25,915 nucleotides of DNA from a virus (Duplodnaviria; Heunggongvirae; Uroviricota; Caudoviricetes): IMG/VR virus record IMGVR_UViG_2529292922_000015. One strand, given 5' to 3'. Made by a program: the position numbers. Numbering within the stretch: position 1 is the stretch's first letter; each line of letters opens with the position of its first letter. Below, piece after piece: positions 6,001-8,745 of the stretch.

Positions 6001-8745
6001 CAGCGGCGCGGGTCATCCGCACCATACAGAGGCGCTGGCATGATTTTCTCCTGATTAAATTGCGTGAATAGCGTGACGAGGGAAGGGGAGAGTTACTGGT
6101 GCAAAGGGTATATCGTCGTCAAAATCCATCGGAGGTTCGTTGTGTTGTGCTGGTGATGATTGCTGCTGTGGCTTCTGTGATTGCCTGCTGGCTGCTTGTT
6201 GTTTGCTGTCGCCAATGCCGCCAAGCATTTGCATCACGCCATTAATTCCGACATGAACCTCGGTTGTGTAACGGTCTTGCCCTGACTGGTCTTTCCACTT
6301 TCTGGTTCTCAGCATTCCCTCGAAATAAATCTGATCACCTTTTTTCACATACTGCCCCACGACCTCAGCCAGTTTCCCGGATACAGCAACACGATGCCAT
6401 TCAGTCAATTCCTTTTGCTCGCCAGTATTTTTATCTCGCCATTGTTCTGACGTGGCTATTGTCAGGTTAGCGAACGCTGTTCCTGATGGTGAGTATCGAA
6501 CTTCCGGGTCTTGTCCTACCCGACCAAGGATAATCACCTTATTTATCCCGCGAGAACTCATTTGCTCCACCTCTTGCCAGTTTTTATGTTGCTTATAATT
6601 GATTGAGATACACCCATGTCTTTTGCTATCTTGTACTGACTCTCTTTTTCAGAGAGTCTTTTCCTAATTTCTATAACCTGCCACTCTGTTAATTTTGCAC
6701 CATGATGAGCATGACCTTTCTTGGCTCCACGATGCCTTCCTTTTGCTATCTTGTCGTCCATGTTTTCTTGCGCGCTACCTAAAAAGAGATGTTCAGGATT
6801 AACGCAGCATTGGTTATCGCATTTGTGGCAAACCATCTTCCCAGATGGAATGGGGGAGTGATAAAGCTCAAAAGCAACCCGATGAGAAAGCATTGTTACG
6901 CCAAAGGCTACAAATTTTGTGTATCCTCCTTTGTTTTTTGAATAGGTAGACTCCCAGCAACCTGTTGTTTCATTAACTTTGTAGCTGGACTCGAATCTTT
7001 TAATAATTCCGTCCAAGTGAGACATTTATGCCGCCTGTTTTAGTTCGTTAACTCTGATGTTCATTACCTGAACGCATTTAGCCTGTGCCTCCTCGTTGCC
7101 AGCCATTAATTGCCAGTCACGCTGATAACGCTCGATGAGTTTTTTCTTGTCAGTTTCTGTTGATGCATAATCGCTGAAGTCTTTCAGGATTTGTTCGCAG
7201 TCAACCGATGGAGATGTCTGGTTGGTATTTTCTGGTGATGGTTTGTTATCTGATGCTGGGATTGCCCATCCCGGCAGCGATGGAGGGAGCCAGTAAAATC
7301 CTGTTCCATCCTTGAGTTTTGCCCTGTGCCATCCCTGCTTTTTATCGAGAGATGTTTGTGCGAAACCTTCCTCAAGGTTATACAGATACCGACCGATTCC
7401 CCACTGAACGGCAGCGCGCTTCATTGCACCGGAACGACCACCTTTTACGGCTTCTACCTGCGTGTTTTCAGCAGCATCCCATTTGGTTACCCATTCGGAA
7501 TCAATCCTGATTGATATGCCGCATTCAACGCCTCCGTTGTTGGGAATATCTCGGTATTCATTGCGCCATCCTGCTTTGCCGCAAACATCGTCAAGGCGTT
7601 TCATGATTGCCCTGTTCGTGACATAAGCCAGCACCATAGCCCACACCTTGCCATCGCGTGTTTTACCGCTTTGCTGTATTCGCCATTCGATATCTTCAGG
7701 GCTGAATGGCTCATCGAATTTATTCAAATCCATAATTCACCTCAGAATGGACATGGACCAAGGAAATAACGCTGATTTAATACTTCGGTCTTTGCCGCAT
7801 TTAAAAAGACGCGAACACCTTCACGATCTCCCTTCTGGCGATACATTAACGCCTGCTGCGTGTACATGCGTCTCTGTAACTTGCTCTCCTTCACTGTGGT
7901 TGCAAGTGACATGAATATCTCCTTCGTTACCGATTAATTCTTTCATCTGACGAATGAATTCTTCGTCTGACCAGTTATCTGTAAAACTCATTTCCTGCGG
8001 TACCACGGAAGGTTGATAGCTGATTTCATCGCTTTATTTGCTTCAAGCCACATTTTTGAATCACCAATAAATCTGGCTATTACTGCTTTGTTTTGTGCCG
8101 CACGAAGCATCTGGTGATTAATGGCTATTTCATTGCGCATAATAAGACCTCAACTCTTTTCCATCCGTCACGTAATTTACGGGTGATTCGTTCAAGTAAA
8201 GATTCATTTAGTTGGAAGGCACCCATGCGAGCGCCTCCCGCGATTACGTAAATCATGGGTGGTTCCTTATATTGGTTTTATTAGTAGGTTATTTTTGTTG
8301 CGAATACTTCGCCTTTTACGATGGCTGTTATGATATTTTTAGCAACATCTTCTGATGCACCAACCTTGATAAGGCCAGCAAGTATTTTGTTATTTACTTC
8401 TTTCCGGTGAGCTTTATCCTTTGCTCTACGCTCTTCTTCGTCCTTGATTCTTTTTTCTTCTGCTATTCTGGCTTGCTCTTTTGCTTCAGCCTCGCGACGG
8501 ATTCTTTCAGCCTCCTCCTGTGCTTTTCTGCGTTCTGCTTCAATTGCTGCCTGCTTTTCTCTTTCAGCTCGTTCTGCTGCCTCTTTTGCTTCGCGCTGTG
8601 CTCGTTGCTCGGCTTCAATACGTTCACGCTCTGCACGTTCCGCTGCTGCCTTAGCTTCTGCTTCTCGCCTTGCTGCTGCTTCAATTTCGGCTTTTGCCTT
8701 TGCTTCGGCTTCTGCTCTGGCTTTCTCTTCAGCTTCTCTTTTTAA

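Follow-up and report, generated by a model that had tools for sequence, protein, structure and literature searches.

The early-left region of a lambdoid prophage integrated beside ybhC, represented by the IMG/VR virus record IMGVR_UViG_2529292922_000015 (Caudoviricetes; 25,915 nt, hereafter termed the window), contains a small gene for an HNH-type nuclease, which is lodged between the gene of a Rad52-type single-strand annealing protein (SSAP) and ssb, the gene of the phage single-stranded DNA-binding protein (SSB). Comparison with relatives suggests that this HNH gene is quite probably a free-standing HNH (His-Me finger) homing endonuclease gene, which resides in the lambdoid recombination module and targets the 5' end of ssb. 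The strongest evidence is a recoded patch of 13 nt at the start of the adjoining ssb gene, a feature absent from the first-pass annotation of this DNA. Free-standing HNH homing genes as such are already well known; what is new here is that filled and empty sites have been defined, that a recoded patch is linked to the gene and that a clade associated with ssb is recognised, and a full-text literature search found no paper describing any of these three.

The insertion of the HNH gene between the annealing-protein gene and ssb, as envisaged by the first-pass annotation, is confirmed by the existence of uninterrupted relatives. In the phages HK75, mEp235, Huey, Sf6 and ES18 the TAA stop codon of the annealing-protein gene is directly followed by the ATG of ssb, within flanks of 98-99% identity, and the 2.2-kb module of the window aligns with HK75, mEp235, mEpX2, Huey and Sf6 at 96-99% identity, with the HNH gene never covered. 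HK75, in which stop and start abut, is 98.3% identical across the module, the annealing gene of the window is 97.7-98.7% identical to those of HK75, mEp235, Huey and Sf6, and the window holds a net 464 nt in excess of these empty-site phages. A megablast search with the HNH DNA gave no match in 50,697 phage records, and the gene is thus known only from prophages and metagenomic viral contigs. Among 5,426 complete Escherichia coli genomes it occurs in 41, all copies being at least 99% identical, while an SSAP-ssb query matches about 420 of these genomes and a one-piece empty junction is present in about 258. The HNH gene is therefore no ancestral constituent of the module in all relatives but a polymorphic one, which is found in about 41 of some 300-420 module-bearing E. 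coli genomes and, among these close relatives, always at the same site. One locus (L031) was considered as a decayed copy devoid of the HNH gene and was rejected, since the sequence is intact and the gene had merely not been called.

Directly beside the insert, ssb begins with ATG AGT TCT CGC GGG ATA, as opposed to ATG GCA AGC AGA GGC GTA, or the minor variant GGA AGT AGA, at empty sites. Outside this patch, window and HK75 differ at 17 of 1,202 nt in the SSAP and ssb genes, with ssb contributing about one of these sites; at that rate approximately 0.18 differences would be expected in 13 nt, compared with the 10 found. Ser3, Arg4 and Gly5 are retained by means of synonymous codons, while Ala2Ser and the conservative exchange Val6Ile alter the protein; Ala2Ser is partly forced because the ssb start overlaps the HNH stop codon in the sequence ATGA. 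Within about 700 nt upstream and about 500 nt downstream of the insertion, nt 4-16 of ssb are the only sites that separate carriers from non-carriers of the HNH gene.

The linkage of patch and gene was probed with a synthetic query in which an empty junction is joined to the recoded ssb start. In E. coli, all two-piece matches, i.e. those of HNH carriers, were at least 96% identical to this query, and all one-piece matches, i.e. those of empty sites, at most 90.2%. A junction that is both empty and recoded was found neither in the E. coli genomes nor in IMG/VR nor in 185,579 species-representative genomes (GTDB). Moreover, the recoded start occurs on 29 contigs of IMG/VR and is in each case preceded by an intact 155-aa HNH open reading frame (ORF), and at least 120 contigs of this collection feature an empty, unrecoded junction. 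The linkage between patch and gene is thus complete in every collection searched. A match of a GTDB representative to the recoded ssb start was discarded as a chance match inside the pyruvate:ferredoxin oxidoreductase gene of a Clostridia metagenome-assembled genome, and the one-piece junctions at 90.2% were rejected as intermediates, given that they represent an ordinary empty variant (ATGGGAAGTAGAGG, MGSRGV) devoid of recoding. The patch is presumed to be the immunity determinant of carriers and the matching stretch of empty sites the presumptive target. With respect to the host, ssb of E. coli K-12 starts with ATGGCCAGCAGAGGCG; over the 13 nt of the patch it has a single mismatch to the phage allele of empty sites, and three of its first 27 nt (ATGGCCAGCAGAGGCGTAAACAAGG; L053, positions 326-352) differ from the empty-site phage ssb.

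The distribution of variation around the insert was assessed in a population sample of one annealing-protein type that comprised 27 distinct haplotypes with and 104 distinct haplotypes without the HNH gene. Nucleotide diversity of the HNH gene amounts to 0.0025 versus 0.021 for the SSAP gene in both classes, i.e. it is about 8-fold lower, and not a single site in the 708-nt annealing gene separates carriers from non-carriers. Instead, SSAP haplotypes of both classes interleave: the carrier L009 differs from the empty HK75 at 6 positions and from the window at 16. The flanks are mosaic as well, since the HNH gene precedes both the window-type ssb allele and a 72%-identical Sf6-type allele. Window and L009 agree at 99.8% of positions in the HNH gene and throughout the first 30 nt of ssb (100%), after which identity drops to 60-80%. 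On the other side, comparison of a locus with an annealing gene of the ERF family and one with a Rad52-type gene (L010 vs L011) yields 98.9% identity of the HNH DNA, with the upstream flank becoming random within about 90 nt. All HNH copies examined in E. coli are intact 155-aa ORFs, except for one truncated by a rearrangement. This pattern fits a recently spreading element that would travel with short co-converted flanks, although general recombination among lambdoid phages could add to it.

The architecture of the HNH protein is that of a nuclease with a separate DNA-binding region. As stated by the first-pass annotation, the gene encodes a protein of 155 aa with a C-terminal helix-turn-helix (HTH), and its position one base past the stop codon of the annealing gene and in ATGA overlap with ssb can be read directly from the coordinates. 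The Pfam model HNH_3 (PF13392) matches aa 48-89 with an E value of 3.7e-13 (49.3 bits, cut-off 24.8), zf-His_Me_endon, a model of the I-PpoI-type zinc loop, matches below its cut-off (E 2e-4), and the PHROG phage HNH endonuclease families 59, 1872 and 6254 match with E values of 1e-29 to 1e-32. In an alignment of 39 homologues C66, H67, C69, D70, C74, N76, H79 and N88 are invariant, and H48 is nearly so. HTH_38 at the C-terminus (aa 111-146) is sub-threshold in Pfam (E 0.0016) and the PADLOC HTH model PDLC02926 reaches an E value of 0.008 only; the HTH is backed by an AlphaFold model with helices at residues 114-125, 130-137 and 141-149 and a mean confidence score (pLDDT) of 89.9. The protein exhibits the beta-beta-alpha-metal fold of His-Me finger nucleases, and the top matches in a fold search are the homing endonucleases I-PpoI and I-HmuI; this relationship emerged from the fold search, as a sequence search of the PDB returned nothing significant. 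In PADLOC a single model is matched significantly, PDLC03704 (E 6e-8), which stands generically for 'homing endonuclease'; no defence-system component was matched. A domain of the Exo, RecE or DnaQ type was not found with Pfam. In RefSeq the protein already bears the name 'HNH endonuclease'.

Beyond E. coli, proteins of 73-74% identity are encoded in prophages of Cronobacter/Enterobacteriaceae and Citrobacter, where they occupy the same TAA|ATG and ATGA junctions and follow an annealing gene that is of the Rad52 type at some loci and of the unrelated ERF family at others; all of these Cronobacter-, Citrobacter- and E. coli-type loci have ATGAGTTCTCGYGG at the start of ssb. Synonymous sites are saturated among the three HNH alleles (pS 0.70-0.87), with a dN/dS ratio of about 0.07. 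More distant members (50-61%) also adjoin ssb upstream, with an overlap of 4 or 8 nt, and follow ERF, RdgC-FtsK-gamma, Sipho_Gp157 or genes of unknown function. They include Vibrio phage 1.079.O (61%), which carries the nearest homologue in an isolated phage, a Shewanella algae prophage (59%) and metagenomic contigs (50-60%). Homologues at 50-74% identity are thus always located directly upstream of ssb, whatever precedes them. According to the first-pass annotation, the junction between SSAP gene and ssb is the target of such insertions; the insert does lie at this junction here, but the constant partner of the clade is ssb rather than the annealing gene, because the upstream gene varies while ssb always follows. 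At 43-46% identity or lower, homologues reside in unrelated places, e.g. among structural and replication genes, and the wider family was retrieved from 1,356 phage records by tblastn. Such unrelated contexts are as expected of a homing-endonuclease family with target-specific subclades. A further-reaching proposal, to which we assign a low probability, is that the HNH clade comprises homing endonucleases specialised on the DNA encoding the near-universal N-terminus of SSB (MASRGVNKV...) from Escherichia to Vibrio and Shewanella, and that these enzymes might also nick the host chromosome or ssb of unrelated phages as a competition or host-takeover factor.

Taken together, homing at this locus could proceed as follows. 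Upon induction or infection, the HNH gene would be expressed from the early-left (pL) operon, and the protein would bind the ssb 5' end of a co-resident or co-infecting phage devoid of the HNH gene by means of both its HTH and its nuclease domain. The likeliest site, at which the DNA would be nicked or cut, is ATG-GCAAGCAGAGGCG, to which the final ~20 nt of the preceding gene might also contribute. Repair of this break from the HNH-carrying genome would then copy the gene along with some 30-60 nt of flanking sequence into the recipient, a process that would conveniently take place beside the annealing protein and SSB of the phage itself. The carrier, in turn, would be protected by the mostly synonymous recoding of ssb nt 4-16, which would destroy the DNA site while leaving SSB nearly unchanged.

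Several observations weigh against this reading. The support for homing is comparative throughout, and free-standing endonucleases of T4 often cut hundreds of bp away from their own gene, so that the patch need not be the cleavage site (PMC2988022). The ATGA overlap dictates one of the patch changes (G to A at ssb nt 4), and interleaved haplotypes as well as sharp breakpoints can result from the free recombination of lambdoid phages without any nuclease. Moreover, a gene beneficial to the phage would likewise be consistent with the purifying selection, the tight translational coupling and the position by ssb that is maintained across deep divergence. Alternatively, the HNH protein could be a working nuclease or nickase of the recombination module, acting jointly with SSB and the annealing protein. 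This possibility agrees with the tight packing of the gene and its translational coupling inside the module, with its conserved place before ssb from E. coli to Vibrio and Shewanella phages and with the low dN/dS, and the similarly tightly packed ES18-type HNH has been argued to be probably a legitimate member of the Rec module (PMC12315714). It is nevertheless considered quite unlikely: about 86-90% of the modules that are otherwise 98-99% identical are devoid of the gene, as are all isolated phage relatives in the phage collection, its diversity lies 8-fold below that of the flanking gene, and it would go unexplained why the synonymous changes in ssb codons 3-5 are strictly linked to the gene. 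In addition, the HNH protein is unrelated to the ES18, Sf6 and Huey proteins, whose genes are found in another slot, that between ssb and abc2, and the mobility of HNH genes makes position a poor guide to function (PMC12315714).

A similarly small probability is attributed to the HNH gene being a passenger, i.e. a 'moron'-like cassette or an inactive homing gene, which is shuffled by general recombination and whose patch is nothing but a piece of donor ssb. Lambdoid early regions are highly mosaic, the ssb-abc2 slot holds cassettes unconnected with homing, and recombination linkers could be provided by the conserved stretches of 21 nt upstream and about 30 nt downstream. The catalytic and zinc ligands, however, are invariant or nearly so in the 39 homologues, and intact 155-aa ORFs are preserved in 29 of 29 IMG/VR copies and in all examined E. 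coli copies bar the rearranged one. Recombination alone should at times split the patch from the gene, but no such case was found. Furthermore, the three HNH alleles share the codons AGT-TCT-CGY in ssb despite the saturation of their synonymous sites, which argues for selection on the DNA of the patch and not for hitch-hiking. Lastly, the nuclease might chiefly act as a weapon that cuts the ssb start of rival phages or of the host on induction, with the spread of the gene as a by-product. The single mismatch of K-12 ssb to the empty-site allele within the patch and the localised marker exclusion caused by free-standing endonucleases of T4 (PMC2988022) are compatible with this idea, which is nonetheless judged highly improbable: host ssb is devoid of the conserved upstream 21 nt, and marker exclusion and homing are two faces of one reaction, so that a weapon function would be an added role instead of a true alternative.

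The fit of the HNH gene between its neighbours can be followed at both junctions. Upstream, the TAA of the SSAP gene (7028-7026) directly abuts the ATG of the HNH gene (7025-7023); downstream, the ssb ATG (6561-6559), the biologically sensible start of that gene, overlaps the HNH stop codon TGA (6560-6558). The sequence of these TAA|ATG and ATGA junctions indicates that the HNH gene is translationally coupled on both sides. A Shine-Dalgarno-like element in the 3' end of the HNH gene may replace the ribosome-binding context of which the insertion deprives ssb. A promoter and terminator scan identified none on the coding strand within or beside the HNH gene, and hence gave no evidence of independent HNH transcription. 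Rfam revealed no intron or other RNA family within the window; the HNH gene is an ORF of its own, with ATG and TGA, that lies between conserved genes outside any recognisable intron or intein. It belongs to the early region, far from the packaging genes and not beside those for terminase or portal, the terminase small subunit gene of the E2348/69 prophage being about 20 kb away. Upstream of the HNH gene, GAACTAAAACAGGCGGCATAA is nearly unchanged even where the preceding gene otherwise belongs to the unrelated ERF family, and it is a candidate for the upstream part of the homing site or, alternatively, for a flank acquired by co-conversion. As a related observation, annealing genes of the ERF family (PF04404, 207 aa) and the Rad52 family (235-241 aa) have near-identical last ~20-60 nt (...GAACTTAAACAGGCGGCATAA; protein ...ELKQAA) at the HNH-carrying loci compared (L010-L015 versus L011 and L016-L020); this common 3' end could represent a C-terminal tail, a module linker or a flank that moves with the HNH gene. 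The coordinates of the HNH gene, its domains and its neighbours are compiled in Table 1.

Table 1. The HNH gene of the window, its domains, flanking elements and neighbouring genes
Feature	Coordinates	Strand	Description
HNH gene	6558..7025	-	155 aa, ATG start; ORF call, matches to Pfam HNH_3 and to HNH endonuclease families of PHROG
HNH_3 / His-Me finger nuclease core, aa 48-89	6759..6884	-	Zinc-binding Cys/His residues and catalytic His48, Asn76 and Asn88
C-terminal three-helix helix-turn-helix, aa 111-152	6570..6695	-	Presumed DNA-recognition domain
Recoded patch, ssb nt 4-16	6546..6558	-	Reads AGTTCTCGCGGGA, as opposed to GCAAGCAGAGGCG at empty sites; 10 differences in 13 nt
Last 21 nt of annealing-protein gene, GAACTAAAACAGGCGGCATAA	7026..7046	-	Junction comparison across loci and identity profile of L010 vs L011
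Shine-Dalgarno-like GAGGTGGAG in HNH 3' end	6565..6573	-	3 nt before ssb ATG; read from the sequence, putative function
Annealing-protein (SSAP) gene	7026..7733	-	Upstream neighbour; Rad52_Rad22, E 7e-26; PHROG 'Erf-like'
Phage ssb	6055..6561	-	168 aa from the ATG at 6561; Pfam SSB PF00436, E 1.7e-36; invariant downstream partner of the HNH clade
abc2 (anti-RecBCD)	5745..6041	-	End of recombination module, after ssb; Pfam Anti-RecBCD_p2, E 4e-62

The slot between ssb and abc2 (6042-6054 in the window) constitutes a second variable site of the module, as seen at the relatives L002, L003, L004, L006, L009 and L033. Nothing is inserted there in the window and in HK75, whereas mEp235, epsilon34 and a number of E. 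coli prophages carry a gene for a DnaQ/Rv2179c-like 3'-5' exonuclease, and Sf6, Huey and DETEC-E601 one for a 155-159-aa protein without Pfam match. As alternative occupants of the HNH site, Sf6 gp26, the Huey 'endonuclease' and the mEp235 exonuclease were considered and rejected, since they lie in this slot and are unrelated to the HNH protein; no sequence similarity of the latter to Sf6 gp26 or the Huey protein was detected. With regard to strain background, the module of the window is identical to a contig of assembly GCA_900448265.1, and the closest complete-genome match to the window is a prophage of the enteropathogenic E. coli (EPEC) strain E2348/69. The chromosome of this strain (NC_011601.1; LT903847, loci L023 and L024) contains two prophages with 100% identical HNH copies and also a third match to the SSAP-ssb junction. 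If this third match represents an empty site, the strain would provide a natural co-residence test of homing.

The HNH gene resembles several known systems in part. MobA and MobE of phage T4 likewise combine an N-terminal HNH nuclease with a separate C-terminal DNA-binding region, their genes lie between conserved genes and not in an intron, and they are present or absent among close relatives and spread together with flanking DNA (PMC2988022, PMC2790892). The T4 Mob genes, however, belong to a virulent phage and have expression signals of their own, whereas the HNH gene is coupled into the pL operon of a temperate lambdoid prophage. Moreover, the T4 enzymes usually cut far away, while here the only carrier-specific sequence is situated 0-13 nt from the insertion, and the activity of MobE has been demonstrated, whereas that of the HNH protein is predicted. 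I-HmuI of the Bacillus phage SPO1 (PDB 1U3E) shares the succession of an N-terminal His-Me/HNH nuclease and a C-terminal helix-turn-helix but is encoded in a group I intron, unlike the intergenic HNH gene in its window free of Rfam introns, and displays a sequence identity to the HNH protein of only about 16-18%. Conceptually, SegF and SegG of T4 are alike in that an intergenic endonuclease gene is accompanied by protection of the carrier through target differences and by co-conversion of flanking markers (PMC2988022); these enzymes are GIY-YIG nucleases, though, with cleavage sites at a distance within neighbouring genes. The ES18 gp47-type HNH gene (PMC12315714, Genome Res 2025) is another small nuclease gene in the SSAP-ssb-abc2 module of P22-like and lambdoid phages, yet it is placed between ssb and abc2 and was proposed as a functional member of the module, as opposed to the sporadic insertion described here. 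Finally, the wider HNH_3 plus HTH family of phages, including HNH genes of T7-like phages, Skunavirus and Aeromonas phages, belongs to the same profile family and is sporadically distributed, but members at 43-46% identity or lower reside in unrelated places, whereas the HNH clade of at least 50% identity is tied to ssb.

Two further regions of the window appear to have received insertions. A second HNH gene is found at 18805-19311 on the plus strand (168 aa, HNH_3 E 1.2e-19). The first-pass annotation had spoken of two unrelated HNH genes in this DNA; the presence of the second gene holds, while 'unrelated' is imprecise, given that both proteins match the Pfam family HNH_3, though with only 25% identity over 63 residues. 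The second gene appears to lie inside or at the end of ninF: a NinF motif (Pfam E 6e-12) is encoded by an ORF at 18663-18842, which extends into the start of the HNH gene, and an ORF ending at 19375 provides a NinF-like C-terminal tail (...CAELMSDPNSSMYEEEDDGD), the entire region spanning 18663-19375 on the plus strand. In the RefSeq record of E2348/69 two 'NinF' pieces surround a truncated HNH remnant, and the ninF HNH gene thus looks like a second homing-type insertion, which is at a different stage of decay in the sister prophage. In the other region, an IS21-family element (istA 8964-9986, istB 9983-10765) abuts a 208-aa Glu/Ala/Lys-rich ORF at 8281-8907. In related prophages the gene to the right of cIII, at the place of this ORF, encodes 322 aa (annotated as hypothetical or 'TolA'), and the ORF was probably truncated by the IS21-family element.

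The best-known free-standing homing endonucleases are those of virulent phages, T4-like ones among them. The HNH gene offers a tidy natural case in temperate lambdoid prophages of E. coli, including those of the EPEC reference strain E2348/69, in which the insertion point, both forms of the site (empty and filled) and a candidate immunity patch have been mapped with single-base precision. HK75 and mEp235, cultivable empty-site phages with flanks of 98-99% identity, provide a ready experimental system, and if the enzyme is specific for a site of about 13-35 bp, it could serve as a rare-cutting nuclease. For the annotation of phage genomes, the case advises caution, as a nuclease gene in a phage recombination module need not belong to the recombination machinery. 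Moreover, the 5' end of ssb constitutes a recurrent insertion point, which annotation and comparative pipelines should expect.

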